Assembly: GCA_965223325.1 (NCBI GenBank)
Contig: CBDCWI010000001.1
Location: forward strand, 1,824,001 to 1,888,000
Direction: 5' to 3'
DNA length: 64,000 nucleotides
From: Candidatus Multivoradales bacterium
GTDB lineage: Bacteria > Acidobacteriota > Thermoanaerobaculia > Multivoradales > Multivoraceae
The notes beneath the pieces were generated by a model. It made no database searches. It was not told where the DNA came from and worked only from the letters and a program-made list of their open reading frames with translations. This document shows, one piece after another, positions 1 to 8,935 of the stretch. The position numbers and the translations under genes are program-made. Numbering within the stretch: position 1 is the first letter of the stretch; each line of letters begins with the position of its first letter.

Positions 1-586
1 AGGGGCGGGCGGGAACGGTCGTTTCCGCGCCGGCAGCGCCAGGAGAAGCGCTCGCCGAACGACCCTCACTGGCTATCAACCGAAAGCGCCCCGCGAGGCT
101 CACGTCGCCTATGCCCTCGATGGTTTCGTTGCGATGATGAATGCTGGTGAACTCGGAACGTATGGCGCCGGTTTCATCTTCGAAGGCCGCTCGAGTTTCG
201 ACGCTGCGCAGTGGTACCTGAACCTCCAGGGCCGCCCGCTCGGTCAGGGCGTAGCTGCCGCGCACGACAACGGTGTCGAGCGACAGATCAACGTGATGGA
301 CACGCGGCTGGTCTACGAGCGGCACGCCCGGCTCGTACTGGTCAGGATCGACCCCGTGCGACGTCTCGACGCGAGTCGACAGCCACGTCAAATCGAGCCG
401 GAAAGCTCCGGGTTCGAGATCGACCGAGAGATGCGTCCCTCCAGCCTGGAGGTTGGGGTTCGTTCAGGCGGTTCAACCACTCGACGCCCAGGCAGCTGGA
501 ATCAGCTGGACGAGTGCCAGGGCGACGAGGATCGGCAGAGCCGCTTTCCGCCGCGAGGGCAACGAGGGCGAGGGGGTTCTTCTCAA
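1..586 (-). CDS. Putative exported selenoprotein with UxxU motif; probable outer-membrane beta-barrel/transporter (3' end runs off the window)
   Basis: Manual translation. TTG start at 586 overlaps the upstream stop (TTGA). Signal peptide MRRTPSPSLPSRRKAALPILVALALVQLIPAAWA, then SSG-TGA(475-473)-T-A-TGA(466-464)-TNPNLQAGG. The frame stays open to base 1, with amphipathic beta-strand patterns (FRLDLTWLST, VVVRGSYAL, LEVQVPL), HH motifs and IHHRNETIEGIGDVSLAGRFRL. A SECIS-like hairpin lies at 438-452. Confidence 0.75.
438..452 (-). promoter_or_regulatory. Putative bacterial SECIS element for the UxxU gene
   Basis: mRNA CCUCCA-GGC-UGGAGG: a 6-bp perfect stem with a G-containing apical loop, starting +12 nt after the second UGA (+21 after the first). 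Confidence 0.65.
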
Positions 587-1281
587 CGCCTCGCCTTCTC
601 GATCAGGCGGTCGAGCTTCTCGAAGTCGAGACCGGAAACGAACCCGACGCGGCGCGGGCCCTTCTTCTCGTGCAGATGCCAGACCTCGACATAGGGCAAA
701 CCCGAGACTTTGGTGAGGTAGCGCTTGGCGACCTCGGAGTCCCAGTCGACGACGTTGAGCTTGCGAACGGCCAGGCTGGGGTCTTTCCCGACTCGTTCGA
801 TCAGTCCGCGGTCGAGTTCGCGGCAAGGGCCACACCACTCGGCCCAGAAATCGAAGATGACGACCTTGCCAGCGGTAACCTCGGGCTCGATATCGGCGTC
901 CTTGCCGTCGCGCGACAGCCAGGCCACGTCGGCGTCTTTTGGAAAGTCTGCGGGCGGCAGGTAGAAGCCCTTGCCCTTCCCGACCACGACCTCTACACCG
1001 GGGTCGGCTGCGGCGACCGCTTCCGCGATGAGTGAATCAACCGACAGCAGGCTGTCGTCGAAATCGACCAACACTTCAGCCGCCTTCAAATCGAAAGACG
1101 CGGCGTTGACTCCCGAAAGAGCTTCGAGTTGCGCGACGACCGCCGCGCCGCAGCTCTGTCAGTCGAGCGCCCGCAAAGAGAGCGTTACCTCACGGGCCGC
1201 CAGGGGCCAAGAGACCGCGAAGAACAGGATGGCTGCGACACCGGCGCGAACTCGCGCAGGGTTCAAGATGGAGACCGACAT
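583..1281 (-). CDS. Putative exported selenoprotein: HMA (heavy-metal-associated, UxxC) domain fused to thioredoxin (WCGPC), 232 aa
   Basis: ORFs 1159..1347 and 583..1089 are in the same frame, separated only by TGA at 1161-1159. Readthrough gives signal peptide MSVSILNPARVRAGVAAILFFAVSWPLAA, then REVTLSLRALD-U-QSC-GAAVVAQLEALSGVNAASFDLKAAEVLVDFD (MerP/CopZ-like GMxCxxC pattern), then thioredoxin GKVVIFDFWAEWCGPC. GAGG RBS precedes ATG 1281. Confidence 0.85.
1131..1148 (-). promoter_or_regulatory. Putative bacterial SECIS element for the HMA-thioredoxin gene
   Basis: mRNA GCGCGGC-GGUC-GUCGCGC: a 7-bp stem at +11..+28 after UGA with a GGUC loop at +18..+21, similar to the E. coli fdhF SECIS loop in sequence and spacing. 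Confidence 0.75.
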
Positions 1282-1662: not shown

Positions 1663-4600
1663 ATGAGAACACCAACCGCCCCCTGCCGCTCCACCTTCGC
1701 TTCCCTCTCTGCTCGCGCAGTGGTTCTCGCGGTTCTCGGGCTCAGCCTCCTCGTCGTCGGCCAGCCGGCATTCGCCCAGACCGCCGGCTCGATCGAGGGT
1801 GCGGTCACCAGCGTCGACGGGGCCGCCATCCTAGGGGCAACGGTGACCCTGTCAGGTGAGGCGCTCCAGGGGCCACCGCTGGTGGCGACCACGGGTGCCG
1901 ACGGGCGCTACCGCCTTTCGCCGGTACCGGCCGGGACCTATGAACTGGCCGTCGAGTCGAGTGACGGGAGCTTCACGCGACCCGAGGTGATCGTGGGTGT
2001 CAACGCTTCGCTCACCATCGACTGGACCGTCGGCCAGCAAGACACCCTCACGGTCATCGGCGAGGCTCCCCTGATCGAGGTCACCCGCTCCGACTTGGCC
2101 TCACGGGTGCCCCAGCAGGCGATCGAAAACCTGCCGCTCAACGGCCGCAACGTCGAAGACCTCGTCAACCTGGTCCCGGGCGTCAAGCCCAACCCAGCCG
2201 GCGTTGCCGACCAGCAGTTCTCGATCTTCGGTGAACGGGCAGCCGCCACCTCATTCATCGTCGATGGCGCCGATAACAACGACCCGCTCGACGGCGGCGC
2301 CTTCCAGCGCTACTCACAGGACTCGATCCAGGAGTTCGAGGTCATCACCACAGGCTACGAGGCCGAGTTCGGCAAGGCCCAGGGGGGCGTGGTCAACGTG
2401 CTCACACGCTCCGGTGGCAACGACCTCAAGGGCTCGCTCTTCTACTTCATGCGCAATGACTCCTGGGACTCTTCGAACGTCTCCGGACAAGAAGTCCCCA
2501 AGCTCGAGCGCGACCAGTATGGAGCCTCGCTCGGAGGCCGTCTGGTCGAGGACCGCGCCTACTACTTCGTTTCGGCTGAGCTGCTCGACGAGAAGCGCGG
2601 CCGCAACCTCGACTTTTCCCAGGTGCCGTCCTGGGTGCAGAACGGCCTCGCCACGCCTGGTTCTCTCAGCGAGAACTTCGGCCTCGGCCCAGAGGACGAA
2701 GGTCTGGTGGCGCTCGGCAAGATCGACCTCGTGCCCAACGACTCACACCGCCTCTCCTTCAGCTATAACCGCACCGATGACGAAGCCGCGGGCGAGATCC
2801 CCAGCGGCATCGCCGGCTCGATCGTCATGCCCAGCGGCGCTCGCACCCAGGACCGCGCGTCCGACAGCTTCACTCTGCGCGACACCTGGATCGCTGGACC
2901 GTCGATGTTTCTCGAATCGAACGCCAAGTACCTCGACGGCACGACCGGCAGCAACCTCGACCGTGCGGACCGCGGCGAGACCGTGCTGCTTCTCTTGCGC
3001 TCTGGATTCATTCAGACTGGCGCGCCGGTCGGCGGTCGCTCGGAGCGCAACATCGAGCGCCTGCAGATCGCACAGGACTTCACCTGGATCCCGCAGGGCG
3101 CAACCAACCACACGTTCAAGTTCGGCTGGGACTACACCGACACCACGCTCGACGGTTTCAACGAGGTCTGGAACGATGTCGAGTATTCGGCGGCGTTCCT
3201 CAACCCGAACGCGGCCGGCGTGATGCAGGACCTGTTCTCGCGTTTCGGCTTCGAGCAGTCGGCCGCACGCTTCTTCAACCTCTCGGCCAACCCCGACGGT
3301 CGCTTAAACCTCGATATCTCGAACGAGGACGTTGGCGTCTTCGCTCAGGACCAGTGGCAGGTGGCCGACAACGTCACCGTCAACCTCGGCCTCCGGTGGG
3401 ATCGTGCCAGCCTCTTCGGCGACGACGAAGACAACTTCGGCCCGCGCGCCGGCATCACCTGGGATATCAGCGGTGACTACCGCACGATCCTCAAGGCCTC
3501 GGCAGGCATCTTCCACGATCGCAACGCCCTCGCCGCAGCGGCCGGGGTCCCCTCAAAGGGTGGCATCTTCACTCGCAACGCCTTCGACGTCGCCCTGCCA
3601 ACACTGGGCTACGACTACTCCGACTCGCTGATCGATCTAGTCATCACCTCGGGGTTCCCGATCGGCGGCGGAGCGCGCTCGCCGGCAGAGAACCCGTCCT
3701 ATCGCGCCTTCGCTGACGCCCTGCGCGCCAACCCGCTGGCGCTCTACGACATCCTCGGCATCGCAGTCAGCGATCCATCGCGTCCGCCAACCGTGACCGC
3801 CGACAACATCCAGGCGCTTTCGGGCATGTCTCCCGACCAGGCGGTCAACCTGCTCGAAACCATGTGGCCGGGCACCGACTGGGCGTTCTTCGATGTGCCG
3901 GGCGGCTCCATTCTCGGTGACCGGGTGCTTTCGTTCCTACCTCGCGGCCCGTTGAGCACCAGTCGCAACGTCCAGGTCTACGACCGTGACGAAACGCCCA
4001 TGACCACGGCCTTCACGATCGGCGTCGAGCACCAGTGGGGCCCTGACATCACGCTGGGTCTCGCCTACGTCCACCGTGAGACCGAGGATCTACTGACGCA
4101 GCGCATCGTCAACCTCTTCGACGCCCAACCGGGCGATCCCAACTTCGGCCAAACGACCGATGGCGGAGCGCGCATCACTCAGGTGGGCTACGACGGCTTC
4201 ATCGACTACGACGGCGTGGTCCTGAGCGTGCGGCGCCCGTTCCGAGATCGCTACGGCTTCTCCTTGTCCTATACCTGGTCGGACGCCGAAGACAACCTTC
4301 TCACCGGCAACGTCGGCTCAGGCTTCAGCAACAACAACCATCCCGAGTTCGACATCGGCGAGTCCAACCTGTCGGCACCGAACGTCGCGGTCGCAAGCAT
4401 CACTTCGCTTCTACCGCTCGACTTCCGGGTCAGCGCCGTCTTGTTCCATCGAGATGGCAACGCCTTCTCACCGCGCGGCATCGTCGACACCGACGGCGAC
4501 GGGCTCGTCGACCAGCGCGACCTTTCCGTTCCACGCAACTCCTTCCGGGTCGATGACTTCACGTCGCTTGACATTCGCCTAGAGAAGCCCTTCCAGCTAC

Positions 4601-4767
4601 CGGACGGCTACGAGATCAACCTGTTGATCGACGTCTTCAACGTCACCAACGAGCGCAACGTGGCAAACGTCAACCCAGTCTCAGGACCAGACTTCGGAAC
4701 TCCCAACGAGTTCTTCCCGGGCCGCGAGATCCAGGCAGGCGTGCGTTTCTACATCGGCGGTCGCTGA
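1663..4767 (+). CDS. TonB-dependent receptor (Oar-like) with N-terminal carboxypeptidase-regulatory-like domain
   Basis: Signal peptide (AFA-Q), GSIEGAVT..GATVTL domain, LPLNGRN plug motif, DSIQEFEVITTGYEAEFG, FAQDQWQV..NLGLRWD, C-terminal PGREIQAGVRFY. AGGAG RBS. Confidence 0.93.
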   Translation: MRTPTAPCRSTFASLSARAVVLAVLGLSLLVVGQPAFAQTAGSIEGAVTSVDGAAILGATVTLSGEALQGPPLVATTGADGRYRLSPVPAGTYELAVESSDGSFTRPEVIVGVNASLTIDWTVGQQDTLTVIGEAPLIEVTRSDLASRVPQQAIENLPLNGRNVEDLVNLVPGVKPNPAGVADQQFSIFGERAAATSFIVDGADNNDPLDGGAFQRYSQDSIQEFEVITTGYEAEFGKAQGGVVNVLTRSGGNDLKGSLFYFMRNDSWDSSNVSGQEVPKLERDQYGASLGGRLVEDRAYYFVSAELLDEKRGRNLDFSQVPSWVQNGLATPGSLSENFGLGPEDEGLVALGKIDLVPNDSHRLSFSYNRTDDEAAGEIPSGIAGSIVMPSGARTQDRASDSFTLRDTWIAGPSMFLESNAKYLDGTTGSNLDRADRGETVLLLLRSGFIQTGAPVGGRSERNIERLQIAQDFTWIPQGATNHTFKFGWDYTDTTLDGFNEVWNDVEYSAAFLNPNAAGVMQDLFSRFGFEQSAARFFNLSANPDGRLNLDISNEDVGVFAQDQWQVADNVTVNLGLRWDRASLFGDDEDNFGPRAGITWDISGDYRTILKASAGIFHDRNALAAAAGVPSKGGIFTRNAFDVALPTLGYDYSDSLIDLVITSGFPIGGGARSPAENPSYRAFADALRANPLALYDILGIAVSDPSRPPTVTADNIQALSGMSPDQAVNLLETMWPGTDWAFFDVPGGSILGDRVLSFLPRGPLSTSRNVQVYDRDETPMTTAFTIGVEHQWGPDITLGLAYVHRETEDLLTQRIVNLFDAQPGDPNFGQTTDGGARITQVGYDGFIDYDGVVLSVRRPFRDRYGFSLSYTWSDAEDNLLTGNVGSGFSNNNHPEFDIGESNLSAPNVAVASITSLLPLDFRVSAVLFHRDGNAFSPRGIVDTDGDGLVDQRDLSVPRNSFRVDDFTSLDIRLEKPFQLPDGYEINLLIDVFNVTNERNVANVNPVSGPDFGTPNEFFPGREIQAGVRFYIGGR

Positions 4768-4870
4768 GACGTCGGGCTCTGAAGCGGCGGGCGCTGCGGC
4801 AGCTCTGACGCCGCAGAGTCCGGCACACCTCTCCGACGATTTCGAGACTCGCATGAAACCTTCTCCAAGT

Positions 4871-4888
4871 TAGTTCGTACTAGAACCA
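4871..4888. promoter_or_regulatory. Candidate MarR operator 1
   Basis: TAGTTCGTACTAGAACCA is an AT-rich imperfect inverted repeat (GTTC-N6-GAAC) upstream of marR; it resembles the site at 5442-5459. Confidence 0.45.
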
Positions 4889-4924
4889 TCTGAGGACGGC
4901 CATCGCCGTCGTGGAAGAAGGTAT

Positions 4925-5395
4925 ATGGCACCACGATCTCCAAAGACGTTCACCTCGCAAGAAGCGCGCGGGGAGTCCTTTGTACCGGTCATGAGGGAGT
5001 TGGTGCGTGCCTATCAGGCGTTCGAGATGTTCGATTCGCGGCTTTTACGCTCGCAGGGGCTGACCACTTGTCAGGCCGACGTTCTCTTTACGCTGGGCAA
5101 CACCAGCGGCATGTCCTTCAAGGAGCTTGGCGAACGCACGCTGATCACCAAGGGCACTCTCACCGGCGTGGTCGATCGCATGGCTGCTAAAGGACTCGTT
5201 GTGCGTCGACCGTCGCCTGAGGACGGGCGAAGCACGATTGCCCTTCTCACTCGCAAGGGCGAGCGCCTCTTCGAGGAGCGTTTCCCGGCCCACATCGCCC
5301 GCCTCAAAGAGCGATTCGATCGCCTGTCGAAGCGTGAACTCGACCAGTCTCTGGAGACCCTCGAACGCCTGCGGGCAATCTTTGACGCTGACTGA
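4925..5395 (+). CDS. MarR family transcriptional regulator
   Basis: GLTTCQADVLFTL, winged HTH ITKGTLTGVVDRMAAKGLVVR, and DGRSTIALLTRKG. Confidence 0.92.
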   Translation: MAPRSPKTFTSQEARGESFVPVMRELVRAYQAFEMFDSRLLRSQGLTTCQADVLFTLGNTSGMSFKELGERTLITKGTLTGVVDRMAAKGLVVRRPSPEDGRSTIALLTRKGERLFEERFPAHIARLKERFDRLSKRELDQSLETLERLRAIFDAD

Positions 5396-5441
5396 GTCCG
5401 TTCCCGAGTTCGGTCGCACTCTCGCTCTCCTTTTCAACAAA

Positions 5442-5459
5442 TAGTACTAGTTAGTAGTA
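5442..5459. promoter_or_regulatory. Candidate MarR operator 2
   Basis: TAGTACTAGTTAGTAGTA contains the inverted repeat TACTA-GT-TAGTA, in the AT-rich gap before the SnoaL gene. Confidence 0.45.
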
Positions 5460-5493
5460 ACTCCCAACGAACAAACAACGAAAGGAAGACCCC

Positions 5494-5859
5494 ATGTCAA
5501 AAACAACCAGGCATGACCAGCAGCTGAACAAGATGGTCCTCGAGGGCCGTGCTCTCGAGGCCTTCGAGCGCTTCTACGCCGAAGACGTTGCGATGCGTGA
5601 GAACTCGCAGCCACCGACAGTCGGCAAGGACGCGAACCGCAGGCGTGAAGAAGAGTTCTTCGCTTCGATCGATCAAGTTCACACCCTGGAGCTCGTCTCG
5701 AGTGCCACGGCCGGCGACCTGAGCCTGTCGGAGTGGATCTGGGACCTGACCTTCAAAGGAGGTGATCGGGCGCGCATCGAGCAGGCGGTGAGTCGCCGGT
5801 GGCGAGACGGCCAAGTGGCCGAAGAGCGCTTCTACTACGAGGCCGGACAGCCTGCCTGA
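5494..5859 (+). CDS. SnoaL/NTF2-like domain protein
   Basis: EAFERFYAEDVAMREN..VGKDANR..RWRDGQVAEERFYY. AAGGA RBS. Confidence 0.85.
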   Translation: MSKTTRHDQQLNKMVLEGRALEAFERFYAEDVAMRENSQPPTVGKDANRRREEEFFASIDQVHTLELVSSATAGDLSLSEWIWDLTFKGGDRARIEQAVSRRWRDGQVAEERFYYEAGQPA

Positions 5860-5910
5860 GGCGTCACACCGAACCAATCCTCATAGGACTGAAACGAAAG
5901 GAAGCTCGAC

Positions 5911-6384
5911 ATGACCGACACAACAGAATCCGCACCCGCTCATCGCATCGCCCCAGACGATCTCGGTCTGGCGCTCATCCGCCTGATCCTCGGAGTCGTC
6001 TTCGCCTTTCATGGAGCTCAAAAGCTCTTTGGTTGGTTCGGGGGCTTCGGCATCGACGGCACGGCGCAGTTCTTCTCTGGCATCGGCCTTCCGCTTCCGA
6101 CGCTCAGCGCCTACCTGGCTGGGGGCGTGGAGCTCTTCGGGGGACTCCTTGTGATGGCAGGTCTCTTGACCCGCACGAGCGCAGCCGCAACAGCCTTCAC
6201 GATGTTCGTCGCCTCGTTCACGGCACACAGTGGCTTTGCGACCGCCAACAACGGGATGGAGTTCCCTCTCACCCTCGCCCTGGTGTCTGTTGCCCTGGTG
6301 CTGACCGGACCGGGGCGCCTCACGGTGGCATCGCTGGCGCTAGCGAGAGACCGTCAACAGGCGATCTCACGGGCAACGGTGTAA
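5911..6384 (+). CDS. DoxX family membrane protein
   Basis: RLILGVVFAFHGAQKLFGWFGG, ELFGGLL and NGMEFPL..GPGRL motifs. Confidence 0.92.
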   Translation: MTDTTESAPAHRIAPDDLGLALIRLILGVVFAFHGAQKLFGWFGGFGIDGTAQFFSGIGLPLPTLSAYLAGGVELFGGLLVMAGLLTRTSAAATAFTMFVASFTAHSGFATANNGMEFPLTLALVSVALVLTGPGRLTVASLALARDRQQAISRATV

Positions 6385-6457
6385 CTCAGCGCTCAGGCGA
6401 CTTCGGGCACCTCGCCCCCACGATGTGCCCGAAGGCCGCCCGTTCGCCTCGCGCGAC

Positions 6458-8245
6458 TCAGTGCTCGTTGCTCGTTTCTCTGGCGGCCCGGCCGGTCGAC
6501 GCGCTCGACAGGCGCTGGCGCTCGAAAACCCGTCGCTCGCCGACTTCCGGTAAGGCGAACGGCGCAAAGGAAAGGGCCCCGTCCATCTGCAACCACAGGT
6601 AGCTCTCTGCTTCGAGCGCCCGCGGAAACTCGTAGTCGACGACCAGGGGTTGGCCACGCCGGTCGACCTCCTGGATCACGACATCGAAGTTCTCGAGGTC
6701 GACCTCGTCGCCAGGGGCAAAGGGCCGGCCGGTATCGCGAAACAGAAAAAACGGGAAGCCGCCGTCTGGCGCGACCCGCAGGGTCCGCTCGCCGGGGCGT
6801 TCGACGACGACCCGGACTGGCAGGCCCCGGTTGGATGAAAGCGCGTGGCTCGCGGCCGGAACCGGCAGGTCATGTAGCTCCCGGTAGATCCAGGAGTAGG
6901 TCGGAACGAAGTAGTTTGGTGAGTCGACGATGAAAGCGACCCTGTTCTCGACTTCTGCTGGATATTCCTGTGCCGTGAAGGCGGCCCCCATCGCACGCGA
7001 TCCCACGCCCAGACCTGCTGCGACCAGCAAGAAGACCAGCGGCGCTACAACCAGGTGCAGGCCGCCGAAGAGCCCAGTGAGCAAGCGGGCGTGACTCGAC
7101 CTGAGTGAGGCCAAGAGCTCGGCGAGGAGTGCGGCCCCGCCAATCCCGGCGAAGACCAACAAGCGACCGGCAGGAAAGGTCGCCGCCGCCGGTACCAGCG
7201 ACAGGAGCATGCCGAGGCCCCAGAACTTCGCTAGCGCCGACTCGCGCAGAACTCTTCGCAGGAGGAACAGGGTGCCCACCGAGAGCACCAGGGCCACCGT
7301 CCAGTGAACGACCTTTCCGGCAGGGGAATGGAAGTGAAACGGCTCGGCCGGCAGGTTGGTCAGCTGAGCAGCCAGCAAGACAGGAATTCGCGCCACCGCA
7401 GCGACCAGGAAGCGCACCGGCGAAACACCCGGGTCGACGTAGACCTCGGAGCCCAGGGCGCCGAAACCCATGGCGCGATAGGCCAGCCGCCACACCAGGA
7501 CGATGGCCGCATACGGCACCAGCGAGAGTGCACGCACCCGCCACGCGCCCTTCTCGAGGAAAAGGGCATAGCCGACGAGGTAGCCCAGGACGGCGAGCGC
7601 CCCCTCGTTGGCGAGCAGCGCAAGCGCCAAGGCGCCACCCGCCAGAACGGCGCCACGAGACCCGCCCTCGTCTCGCCAACGATGATGCAAGACAAGGCAG
7701 AGGAGCCCCAGAACGAGTCCGAGCAGCGCATTCCGGTTGGCGAGCCAAGCCACGGGCATGGCGTGCGCTTCATCGACGACGAACAGGAGCGTCGAAAGGC
7801 CAGCGCTCGCGCCACCGCCGCCGAGTCGCCTGTAGAGCACCATCGCCAGCACGATGGCAACGCAGTACCAGCCAAGACTCTGCGCGTGCATGAGCATCGC
7901 CTGTTCCGCCCATAGTGCATCGTCAACGACGTGCGTCAGAACGGTCACCGGGCGCCAGAAGTCGAGCAGGATGTCTTCCGCAGTCCACCACGGGAAGAAC
8001 CCACTCTCGATTGCACCTCGATTGAGCTCGAGATCGCCGCTCGTGAAGGTGAACATCCGGGCCGGCGAGGTCATGAACTGCGAAACCACACCTACGCCTT
8101 GAAAGGCCGAGCGGTGGGTCAGGTCGTCGAGGAACCATCCTCCCCAGAGCGACGGCAGGCCGAGCAGGATCCCGAGCGCAATGAAGGTGAACGAACCCCG
8201 TAGGAAAGGCCTGCCTGGAGTGCCCATTCGATCGTTTCTCGCCAT
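6458..8245 (-). CDS. Polytopic membrane protein, possible GT-C-fold glycosyltransferase
   Basis: An N-terminal TM is followed by a loop with WFLDD, then FWRPVT, VAWLANR and LLANE motifs, about 11-13 hydrophobic segments and a soluble C-terminal domain. Start is uncertain (8260/8245/8227). Confidence 0.55.
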   Translation of the reverse strand: MARNDRMGTPGRPFLRGSFTFIALGILLGLPSLWGGWFLDDLTHRSAFQGVGVVSQFMTSPARMFTFTSGDLELNRGAIESGFFPWWTAEDILLDFWRPVTVLTHVVDDALWAEQAMLMHAQSLGWYCVAIVLAMVLYRRLGGGGASAGLSTLLFVVDEAHAMPVAWLANRNALLGLVLGLLCLVLHHRWRDEGGSRGAVLAGGALALALLANEGALAVLGYLVGYALFLEKGAWRVRALSLVPYAAIVLVWRLAYRAMGFGALGSEVYVDPGVSPVRFLVAAVARIPVLLAAQLTNLPAEPFHFHSPAGKVVHWTVALVLSVGTLFLLRRVLRESALAKFWGLGMLLSLVPAAATFPAGRLLVFAGIGGAALLAELLASLRSSHARLLTGLFGGLHLVVAPLVFLLVAAGLGVGSRAMGAAFTAQEYPAEVENRVAFIVDSPNYFVPTYSWIYRELHDLPVPAASHALSSNRGLPVRVVVERPGERTLRVAPDGGFPFFLFRDTGRPFAPGDEVDLENFDVVIQEVDRRGQPLVVDYEFPRALEAESYLWLQMDGALSFAPFALPEVGERRVFERQRLSSASTGRAARETSNEH

Positions 8246-8377
8246 GTTGTGGTCGGCCACGCGCCCCCTTCCTAGGCGAGAAGGGTACTGGACCGAGACC
8301 CGCCTGCCTCGAAGCCCGCGATAGGCTCGACGTCAAGCGTCCCACAGTCAAAGCTCCCGAACCGAAAGGAGAACCCT

Positions 8378-8935
8378 ATGGTCTCTCTCGCGTCGCTGTG
8401 GCTGCCGATCCTTCTCTCGGCCGCGTTCGTGTTCCTGTTGAGTTCGATCGTTCACATGGTCTTGCCCTACCACCGAAGTGACTACGACAAGTTGCCCGAC
8501 GAAGATGCGGTCCTCGATGTCATGCGCAAGTCAGGAGTCGGGCAAGGCAACTTCTACCTCCCGCACGCCGTGACGCCGGCGGAGCAGCGCAGCGAAGAAG
8601 TGAAGGAGAAGCTCGCTCGGGGCCCTGTTGCCTTCATCAATGTGTGGCCTCCCGGCCCGGTCAACATGGGCAAGAGTCTGGGTAGCTGGTTCGTGTTCTG
8701 TGTCGTGGTGTCGATCTTTTGTGGGTACCTCGCATCGACGACCCTCGCGGCCGGAGCGGAGTACCTCTCCGTTTTTCGCGTCGCCGGAACGGCGGCGTTC
8801 ATGACCTTCGGCCTGGGAGAGATCACGAGCTCGATCTGGAAGGCGCAGAAGTGGTCGACGACCACAAAGAGCCTCTTTGACGGTCTGCTCTACGCGTTGG
8901 TTACTGCTGGGACATTTGCCTGGCTCTGGCCCTGA
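8378..8935 (+). CDS. Hypothetical membrane protein (about 4-5 TM)
   Basis: Strong AAAGGAG RBS, coding-like codon usage, hydrophobic segments, HMVLPYH motif. Confidence 0.8.
   Translation: MVSLASLWLPILLSAAFVFLLSSIVHMVLPYHRSDYDKLPDEDAVLDVMRKSGVGQGNFYLPHAVTPAEQRSEEVKEKLARGPVAFINVWPPGPVNMGKSLGSWFVFCVVVSIFCGYLASTTLAAGAEYLSVFRVAGTAAFMTFGLGEITSSIWKAQKWSTTTKSLFDGLLYALVTAGTFAWLWP

Follow-up and report, generated by a model that had tools for sequence, protein, structure and literature searches.

Comparative sequence evidence for an outer-membrane barrel family with a UxxU double-selenocysteine motif and a thioredoxin partner

Introduction

Paired selenocysteine (Sec, U) residues spaced as UxxU are familiar from selenoprotein L of aquatic eukaryotes, a soluble protein of thioredoxin fold in which the pair forms a diselenide and which is decoded through a eukaryotic selenocysteine insertion sequence (SECIS) in the 3'-untranslated region of its mRNA; in bacteria, periplasmic thioredoxins of the TlpA type reduce the cysteines of copper chaperones. 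Here we describe a gene for a putative outer-membrane beta-barrel with a UxxU motif, together with the gene for a secreted thioredoxin encoded directly upstream of it, at the edge of a 64,000-nucleotide stretch of the genome of Candidatus Multivoradales bacterium (Acidobacteriota; assembly GCA_965223325.1, contig CBDCWI010000001.1, positions 1,824,001 to 1,888,000). We refer to this whole stretch as the window (G000:C1:1824001-1888000), G000 being the genome that it comes from, which is in two contigs and 98.2% complete. The barrel resembles selenoprotein L in having a UxxU that could form a diselenide, and differs from it in not being a soluble fold and in its type of SECIS; its partner would resemble the TlpA-type thioredoxins in keeping metal-binding thiols reduced, although the partners of the latter are Cys proteins and not barrels. 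The comparative evidence set out below makes it close to certain that the window encodes an outer-membrane double selenoprotein with a dedicated thioredoxin partner.

Among described metal-handling proteins, the closest working analogue of the window's barrel appears to be PcoB, an outer-membrane barrel of 12 strands whose N-terminal tail faces the periplasm, carries metal ligands and is required for copper efflux; it is encoded beside the multicopper oxidase PcoA, as described in PMC9210255 and PMC12509749. PcoB and CopB, as far as these accounts present them, share with our barrel the 12 strands and a ligand-bearing N-terminal tail, and in a related genome (G010) the module described here likewise follows a multicopper oxidase gene. 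However, the PcoB tail is described there as long, poorly conserved, rich in His and Met and disordered, whereas the tail of the window's barrel is short, strictly conserved and supplied with Sec/Cys ligands; the His-rich segments of the barrel's relatives sit in C-terminal tails and linkers, unlike the N-terminal ones reported for PcoB, and the Pco system as set out in those accounts has no counterpart of the barrel's thioredoxin partner. Membership of the PcoB/CopB family was ruled out by a Pfam scan, in which the CopB family model matched none of the 67 family members that we aligned. The only detectable sequence relatives are the COG4313/PF13557 proteins, which are of similar size, have 12 strands and carry a segment N-terminal to strand 1; in Pput2725, the member with a solved structure, the N-terminal ~14 residues are reported to fold into the lumen and occlude it from the periplasmic side, and COG4313 proteins have been linked to amphipathic or hydrophobic substrates (PMC4493636). 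As described in that paper, COG4313 proteins have neither a CxxC/UxxU motif nor a thioredoxin partner.

A 2026 catalogue of prokaryotic selenoproteins holds 119 families, from which the barrel family is absent, and its UxxU entries are a Prx-like family, an FmdB-family protein and NF041115, a small, soluble, HMA-like metal-binding (seleno)protein (PMC13188914 Table 1). Its only outer-membrane entries, with one Sec each, are GSU2204, an MtrB/PioB-type barrel (NF041027), and a TonB receptor with an FCYXU motif (NF049945) (PMC13188914). NF041115 is like the window's barrel in its two Sec residues two residues apart, its soft-metal setting and the decoding problem that it poses; it differs in having no membrane barrel, and the window's barrel shows no similarity to its model. 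NF041027 and NF049945 share the placement of Sec in an outer-membrane beta-barrel and belong to other barrel families and other contexts (cytochrome conduits and TonB). Membership of any of these three families was ruled out, as no NCBIfam model (release 20) matched the barrel or any of the 67 members. In the literature on UxxU, outer-membrane or Myxococcota selenoproteins we found no description of the barrel family; the supplementary tables of selenoproteome studies might list one.

Results

Two in-frame UGA codons and their conservation

A preliminary description of the window's first 586 nucleotides (nt) had claimed two in-frame TGA codons, three codons apart, directly after a signal peptide and the residues AAWA-SSG, followed by more than 150 open codons with VHHVD, IHHRNE and GIGD motifs. 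When the minus strand is translated with TGA read as Sec, both codons lie exactly as claimed, 154 open codons follow to the window edge, and all three motifs are in the translation; the mature N-terminus reads Ser-Ser-Gly-Sec-Thr-Ala-Sec-Thr-Asn-Pro-Asn-Leu and then Gln (LIPAAWA SSG U TA U TNPNLQ). The adjoining DNA supplied the rest of the gene, with the frame staying open to a total of 371 codons (1,113 nt; L001 971-2086) and ending at a non-TGA stop outside the window; the coordinates of all features are collected in Table 1. We take a TTG as the start because it overlaps the stop of the upstream gene (TTGA) and because of the signal peptides of relatives, in whose gene models comparable signal peptides precede the motif. 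The sole other start in this frame, a GTG at 838, would create an overlap of ~250 nt with the upstream gene. A Ser-Arg-Arg-Lys in the signal peptide was considered as a twin-arginine translocation (Tat) motif and taken as incidental; the signal peptides of most relatives have no Arg-Arg pair.

The window's genome has a tRNA-Sec with anticodon TCA, and its selA, selB and selD genes score 449, 297 and 223 bits, all above the curated cut-offs (268, 242 and 125, respectively). TGA is also an ordinary stop in this genome, and ends the gene upstream of the barrel. A six-frame search of 61 genomes (G000 and 60 relatives) found the barrel gene in three of them, and the two relatives (G003 and G010, with 61% and 40% protein identity, respectively) keep both TGAs at the same positions, which bears out the earlier argument that the pair is not a product of chance nonsense mutations. 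A wider scan of species representatives (one genome per species) yielded 224 relative stretches, and 80 loci from Acidobacteriota, Myxococcota, Gemmatimonadaceae, Bradymonadia and other groups were kept for reading the motif, again with TGA as U. Every variant of the motif except UxxC was found among these: 52 loci have UxxU, 14 CxxU, 11 CxxC and none UxxC, and three are without a motif (L024, which ends at a contig edge, and L058 and L059, to which no motif was assigned). Some Archangium and Myxococcus strains have the CxxU form. UxxU, which the preliminary description had called rare, is thus the commonest state within this family, a correction of emphasis only.

A signal peptide followed at once by the motif is present in 77 of the 80 loci, and the second UGA is kept in 66. 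The homologues therefore do not begin downstream of the TGAs, nor do they lack Cys or Sec there; CxxC occurs in 14 of 17 full-length database entries, and the full-length proteins P0020, P0025 and P0027 have CAGC where the window's protein has UxxU. In all 52 alignment rows that cover the N-terminus, N43 and P44 are invariant, as are C/U38 and C/U41. In a distant clade (P0141, P0145 and P0162) QATC-SNPG replaces CxxC-SNPN, with the second Cys alone kept; two of these three proteins are barrel-thioredoxin fusions. The selA gene is present in five of five genomes with U-forms vs one of five with CxxC forms, although a missing selA is weak evidence because these genomes are mostly metagenome-assembled genomes (MAGs). 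From this pattern of conservation we have little doubt that the window's barrel is a genuine double selenoprotein. The CxxC or UxxU might serve solely as a structural or folding disulfide, acted on by envelope thiol-disulfide systems and otherwise without a function, which would sit well with the existence of CxxC forms and with the three QATC proteins that keep a single Cys; we nevertheless judge it very unlikely, as a purely structural bond gives no reason to expect a double Sec in 52 of 80 loci, with the SECIS that this requires, and the motif and the NP that follows it are invariant in every row that covers them.

A SECIS-type hairpin downstream of the second UGA

In the window, the stem of a SECIS-type hairpin begins 11 nt past UGA 2, its loop lying 17 nt past UGA 2 and 26 nt past UGA 1. 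The consensus for bacterial SECIS elements (bSECIS) has a stem of 4-16 bp, a loop of 3-9 nt with a G in its first two positions, a distance of 16-37 nt from UGA to loop and a minimum free energy (MFE) of -7.5 or less (PMC13188914 section 5). We aligned 68 Sec-bearing sequences, from 66 loci and from G000 and G010, without any gap; their loops fall 16-17 nt from UGA 2 and 25-26 nt from UGA 1, -7.5 kcal/mol is reached by 66 of the 68, and the early G in the loops was read by eye from single-sequence folds. As both spacings lie within 16-37 nt, one hairpin satisfies the bSECIS model for both codons. Single-sequence folds gave a 5-9 bp stem with its apical loop in columns 29-34 in 68 of 68 Sec sequences vs none of 11 CxxC genes, and the mean MFE was -11.0 vs -4.2 kcal/mol, respectively (Mann-Whitney p = 2e-7, uncorrected for relatedness). 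Across the alignment, 88% of cells pair between stem columns 24-29 and 34-39, and two-sided changes in the stem number 21 cells vs 6.6 expected, a count matched by none of 500 shuffles; every slid register scores worse. In pair 27-36 (CG 35, GC 7, UA 3) the partners are the third positions of a Leu and a Gly codon, so that this covariation falls at synonymous sites. The picture is also fitted by UGA 2, the codon at the canonical distance, being the one that is never lost to Cys while UGA 1 stays Sec (CxxU exists, UxxC does not), and by the three distant QATC proteins, in which the second Cys alone is kept.

Several observations weigh on the other side. UGA 1 sits 9 nt further from the hairpin than UGA 2; the energies of the whole segments after the UGAs are no better than those of shuffled sequences (z = 0.48 for the 81 nt after UGA 1, z = -0.29 for the partner gene discussed below), and a search of Rfam returned noise only, with no match for the hairpin. 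RNAalifold alone, applied to the 68-sequence alignment, recovered only two pairs. The reason, visible in the single-sequence folds, is a one-position shift of register in part of the family. The sequences are related, so that the covariation counts overstate their independence, and the six-frame search did not find the barrel module in the same-genus genome or in 34 of the 36 same-family genomes searched, which gives the gene a patchy distribution.

Family size and annotation

An exhaustive profile search of 1.84 billion representatives, clustered at 50% identity, returned 2,211 cluster representatives at E-values of 1e-3 or less, 706 at 1e-10 or less and 347 at 1e-30 or less; the family is a large one, unnamed, with Cys homologues. 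The profile holds the motif at positions ~22-25, and among the best 150 of the 2,211 representatives 17 begin to align at or before position 16 and 133 only at or after position 28. All 17 full-length entries among these 150 are Cys forms (14 CxxC and three QATC). A search of 5.8 billion proteins gave 26 matches, most of ~300 residues and beginning past the motif, and gene callers start the window's own barrel gene at a downstream TTG, as they do P0004. Since the full-length entries are all Cys forms and the rest start past the motif, the Sec forms are represented in public data almost only by N-terminally truncated calls. These same truncated entries and downstream TTG starts are what would be expected were the TGAs real stops, in a pseudogene or in a gene that starts downstream. 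We find this scarcely credible: a start downstream would deprive the protein of the signal peptide encoded in the upstream frame, which an outer-membrane barrel requires; conservation extends to both TGAs, the SECIS hairpin and the Cys homologues, and the genome has the machinery for inserting Sec.

Predicted fold and conserved residues of the barrel

The preliminary description had taken the protein for a beta-barrel, and an AlphaFold2 run on the 67-row alignment, with U entered as C, agrees with it, predicting a barrel with 12 strands between residues 61 and 367 (mean predicted local distance difference test (pLDDT) 85.3, predicted template modelling score (pTM) 0.81). The mature tail ahead of strand 1 has ~25 residues, and the barrel starts ~20 residues past the motif. 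The proposed likeness to Phenol_MetA-type barrels proved real and weak: PF13557 (Phenol_MetA_deg) matches 12 of the 67 aligned members at E-values of 0.01 or less (best 6.8e-8), but the window's own protein has no match, and neither Pfam nor NCBIfam returned anything for it at an E-value of 1 or less. A profile search of PDB sequences gave nothing below E = 0.5 and hence no sequence-related solved structure.

All 67 rows share seven residues (H97, H150, H151, D161, H225, H227 and W306), and 97% of them have H77; H225 and H227 are encoded outside the window. Family-mean hydropathy alternates along the predicted strands in a pattern that has H77, H97, R127, E154 and R316 facing inward, and the predicted strands leave H150/H151 and H225/H227 in loops at the same end of the barrel, which would be the extracellular end assuming the usual topology with a periplasmic N-terminus. 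In model and alignment, then, the conserved His, Asp, Glu and Arg residues are placed either on the lumen wall or in the loops of one barrel end. In the loop that follows strand 1 the Myxococcota branch conserves, in addition, a pair of Cys residues, C-P-D/E-I-G-P-I/V-C (P0019, P0020, P0023, P0025, P0027, P0028 and many loci), a pair that the Acidobacteriota branch, including the window's protein, does not have.

A thioredoxin partner

The gene directly upstream of the barrel gene encodes a protein with Pfam matches to HMA (32.6 bits, cut-off 24.8) and Thioredoxin (31.4 bits, cut-off 23.5), and it too has an in-frame UGA, which takes the place of the first Cys codon in the HMA metal site and makes it UQSC. 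This site reads UQSC in G003 as well; other partners have CxxC, e.g., CQSC or CATC. Against the NF041115 model the HMA domain scores 27.2 bits, a weak resemblance in view of the cut-off of 95. The stem-loop predicted to follow the partner's UGA has an apical loop, GGUC (1141-1138), 17 nt past the UGA, which is the geometry of the barrel hairpin. A thioredoxin homologue immediately adjoins the barrel gene, on one side or the other and on the same strand, at 76 of 82 loci, and WCxxC is present in all 76 partners; no thioredoxin was found at L016, L023, L024, L026, L042 and L046, of which L024, L042 and L046 end at a contig or locus edge.

In-frame fusion of the thioredoxin to the C-terminus of the barrel is seen in 21 of the 76 gene models, and the domains were confirmed in nine of ten fusions scanned. 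Both termini of a 12-stranded outer-membrane barrel lie on the same side, in the periplasm; in the C-terminal fusions the thioredoxin thus shares a side with the N-terminal motif, and because of this geometry we propose that the thioredoxin acts on the motif. Functional coupling of the barrel to the thioredoxin is, in our view, highly probable. In G010 (L007 ~2480-3100, minus strand) the HMA part of the partner (site CRTC) and the thioredoxin part lie in different frames, which suggests a frameshift or a sequencing error between the domains.

Evidence for a soft-metal role

An HMA domain precedes the thioredoxin in 13 of the 82 loci by tblastn, the window's included, and in more by alignment. 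The partners of Myxococcaceae (L040 4315-4947, L057 4285-4947 and others) have no HMA, and have instead an N-terminal domain with two Cys/His repeats (approximately C-x-H-x-V-P-x-x-x-C-x-x-C-H/N-P); no Pfam model matches this domain, which looks like a metal-binding module without a name. Among the ten fusions scanned, Cupredoxin_1 was found in four, all from Kofleriaceae, the heavy-metal-binding domain HMBD in one, and there were His-rich linkers; several unfused barrels have C-terminal tails rich in His, Asp and Glu. The Kofleriaceae proteins (L029, L030, L075 and L084) are four-part fusions of 659-682 residues, in the order barrel, long His/Glu/Asp/Gly-rich linker, thioredoxin, and, after a Pro-rich linker, Cupredoxin_1 with terminal Cys/Met residues that resemble ligands.

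We surveyed the five nearest open reading frames (ORFs) at 30 loci, and metal genes adjoin the module at five of them: a P-type ATPase at L013, two HMA proteins at L017, an RND pump with a CusB-like adaptor at L056, MerR and ArsR at L081, and the neighbours at L022. The last of these (~2400-8500, in a Myxococcales MAG) is an island with MerR, a MerT-HMA fusion, HMA-thioredoxin, the UxxU barrel and a P-type ATPase on the opposite strand. A neighbour at L040 that had been considered a MerA-like mercuric reductase was dropped from the count; its Pfam match is to the generic Pyr_redox, with no HMA. A multicopper oxidase lies directly upstream of the module in G010; none accompanies it in the window's genome or at any of the 30 surveyed loci. 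Within the window, the divergent Oar-like protein (Table 1) has no evident link to the module.

Table 1. Features of the barrel-thioredoxin locus, in positions of the window (position 1 is its first letter)
Feature	Position	Strand	Basis or remark
Barrel gene, first 195 codons	1..586	minus	Frame translated with TGA=U; runs on leftward of the window to G000:C1:1823474
Inferred start TTG	586-584	minus	Overlaps the TGA stop (585-583) of the upstream gene
Predicted signal peptide, codons 1-35	482..586	minus	By inspection; basic n-region, hydrophobic core, AWA then cleavage
UGA 1, Sec38, first UxxU position	475-473	minus	U in 52, C in 25 of 77 motif-bearing loci
UGA 2, Sec41, second UxxU position	466-464	minus	U in 66, C in 11 of 77 motif-bearing loci
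SECIS-type hairpin CCUCCA-GGC-UGGAGG, 6-bp stem, loop GGC	452-438	minus	MFE -8.9 kcal/mol
Conserved barrel residues inside the window	104..358	minus	H77 358-356, H97 298-296, H150-H151-R152 139-131, D161 106-104
Partner gene, secreted HMA-thioredoxin	583..1281	minus	232 codons and a TGA stop; directly upstream, co-oriented
Partner thioredoxin active site WCGPC	837-823	minus	Pfam Thioredoxin
Partner UGA, Sec41, first Cys position of the HMA CxxC metal site (UQSC)	1159..1161	minus	Translation with TGA=U
Stem-loop after the partner UGA	1118..1157	minus	MFE structure of one sequence; z = -0.29 vs shuffles
Oar-like protein	1663-4767	plus	Divergent; 1,034 residues, CarboxypepD_reg and OMP_b-brl_4/TonB-type barrel

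Discussion

The best explanation overall, to which we give about an even chance, is that the barrel and its partner form a soft-metal module at the outer membrane. Because the link to metals comes from domain fusions and from a minority of neighbourhoods, a soft-metal role, with copper as the most likely metal, could as readily prove wrong as right. The best-supported mechanism, we infer, is a redox-controlled soft-metal channel. The diselenol tail would share the periplasmic side with the thioredoxin, and would bind the metal, or toggle between diselenide and diselenol, at or inside the mouth of the channel; the thioredoxin would hold the tail reduced, the HMA domain (or the cupredoxin, HMBD and Cys/His domains of other members) would pass the metal on, and the His-lined lumen would carry it across the membrane. 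The preliminary description had imagined a redox- or metal-gated plug, and this is a reasonable inference, as the N-terminal ~14 residues of Pput2725 are reported to occlude its lumen (PMC4493636); the thioredoxin partner and the metal-binding domains of family members, taken with that reported placement of the Pput2725 N-terminus, point to such a plug here.

We speculate, more tentatively and at rather less than even confidence, that the family represents a new class of soft-metal gate. One SECIS would serve two Sec residues encoded 9 nt apart to make a diselenol claw, the tail would thread the lumen by six conserved His residues to form a Cu(I)/Hg(II)/Ag(I) site, and a redox state set by the thioredoxin would gate the channel; such gates would be widespread in soil Myxococcota and Acidobacteriota, hidden by gene calls cut short at TGA.

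Four observations count against a metal-handling plug or channel. Residues 28-41, which include the motif, have a pLDDT below 50 in the AlphaFold2 model, leaving the tail without a confident position; the five nearest ORFs at 25 of the 30 surveyed loci include no recognisable metal neighbour; the module in the window is flanked by the Oar-like TonB-type barrel and a GNAT acetyltransferase, with no metal genes; and the characterised PF13557/COG4313 relatives are tied to hydrophobic substrates, not to metals, in the account of PMC4493636.

Much of this would be accommodated by a redox-gated channel with no metal role, in which the diselenide/diselenol state of the tail gates a COG4313-like channel, perhaps for a hydrophobic substrate, or senses oxidants, and the thioredoxin resets it. 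PF13557/COG4313 is the only family link that the barrel has (12 of 67 relatives), and the solved COG4313 member, with its N-terminus occluding the lumen and substrates thought to be amphipathic (PMC4493636, as far as described there), would be a fitting model. The thioredoxin partner is near-universal (76 of 82 loci), metal domains occur only in part of the family, and the 25 loci just mentioned speak in the same direction. Such a channel nevertheless gives no reason for the metal-binding nature of every added domain (HMA, HMBD, cupredoxin, His-rich linkers and Cys/His motifs), and it leaves the invariant His cluster of the lumen without an explanation; we consider it rather unlikely.

The thioredoxin bears on one further possibility, an envelope oxidoreductase for which the barrel would be an anchor and the Sec pair the catalytic centre, of a peroxidase or of a reductase of chalcogen oxyanions or disulfides. 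A dedicated WCxxC thioredoxin is the usual recycling partner for such an enzyme, and the porin-like ExtI of Geobacter has reportedly been linked to selenite and tellurite reduction, which can be counted in its favour. Most Sec/Cys pairs in CxxC-type motifs are, moreover, catalytic redox centres (PMC13188914 section 7). However, no fold or family known for such catalysis is present, the motif lies in a short, flexible tail rather than in a thioredoxin or peroxiredoxin fold, and the accessory domains bind metals, not redox cofactors; we regard an oxidoreductase as distinctly unlikely and keep the redox-controlled soft-metal channel as our working explanation.

Selenoproteins that have Cys homologues are a known kind of protein, as are outer-membrane metal channels whose tail bears ligands; the family itself is unnamed. 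If our reading is true, the prokaryotic selenoproteome gains a large family, the first among outer-membrane proteins to have two Sec residues. The family also exposes a systematic annotation error, as 133 of the best 150 representatives start past the motif. The natural series of UxxU, CxxU, CxxC and xxxC, never UxxC, lets one ask how one bacterial SECIS serves two UGAs, and why the second position is the indispensable one. Finally, if true, the family points to an unrecognised outer-membrane part of copper or soft-metal handling, tied to the thiol-redox chemistry of the periplasm, in abundant soil phyla.

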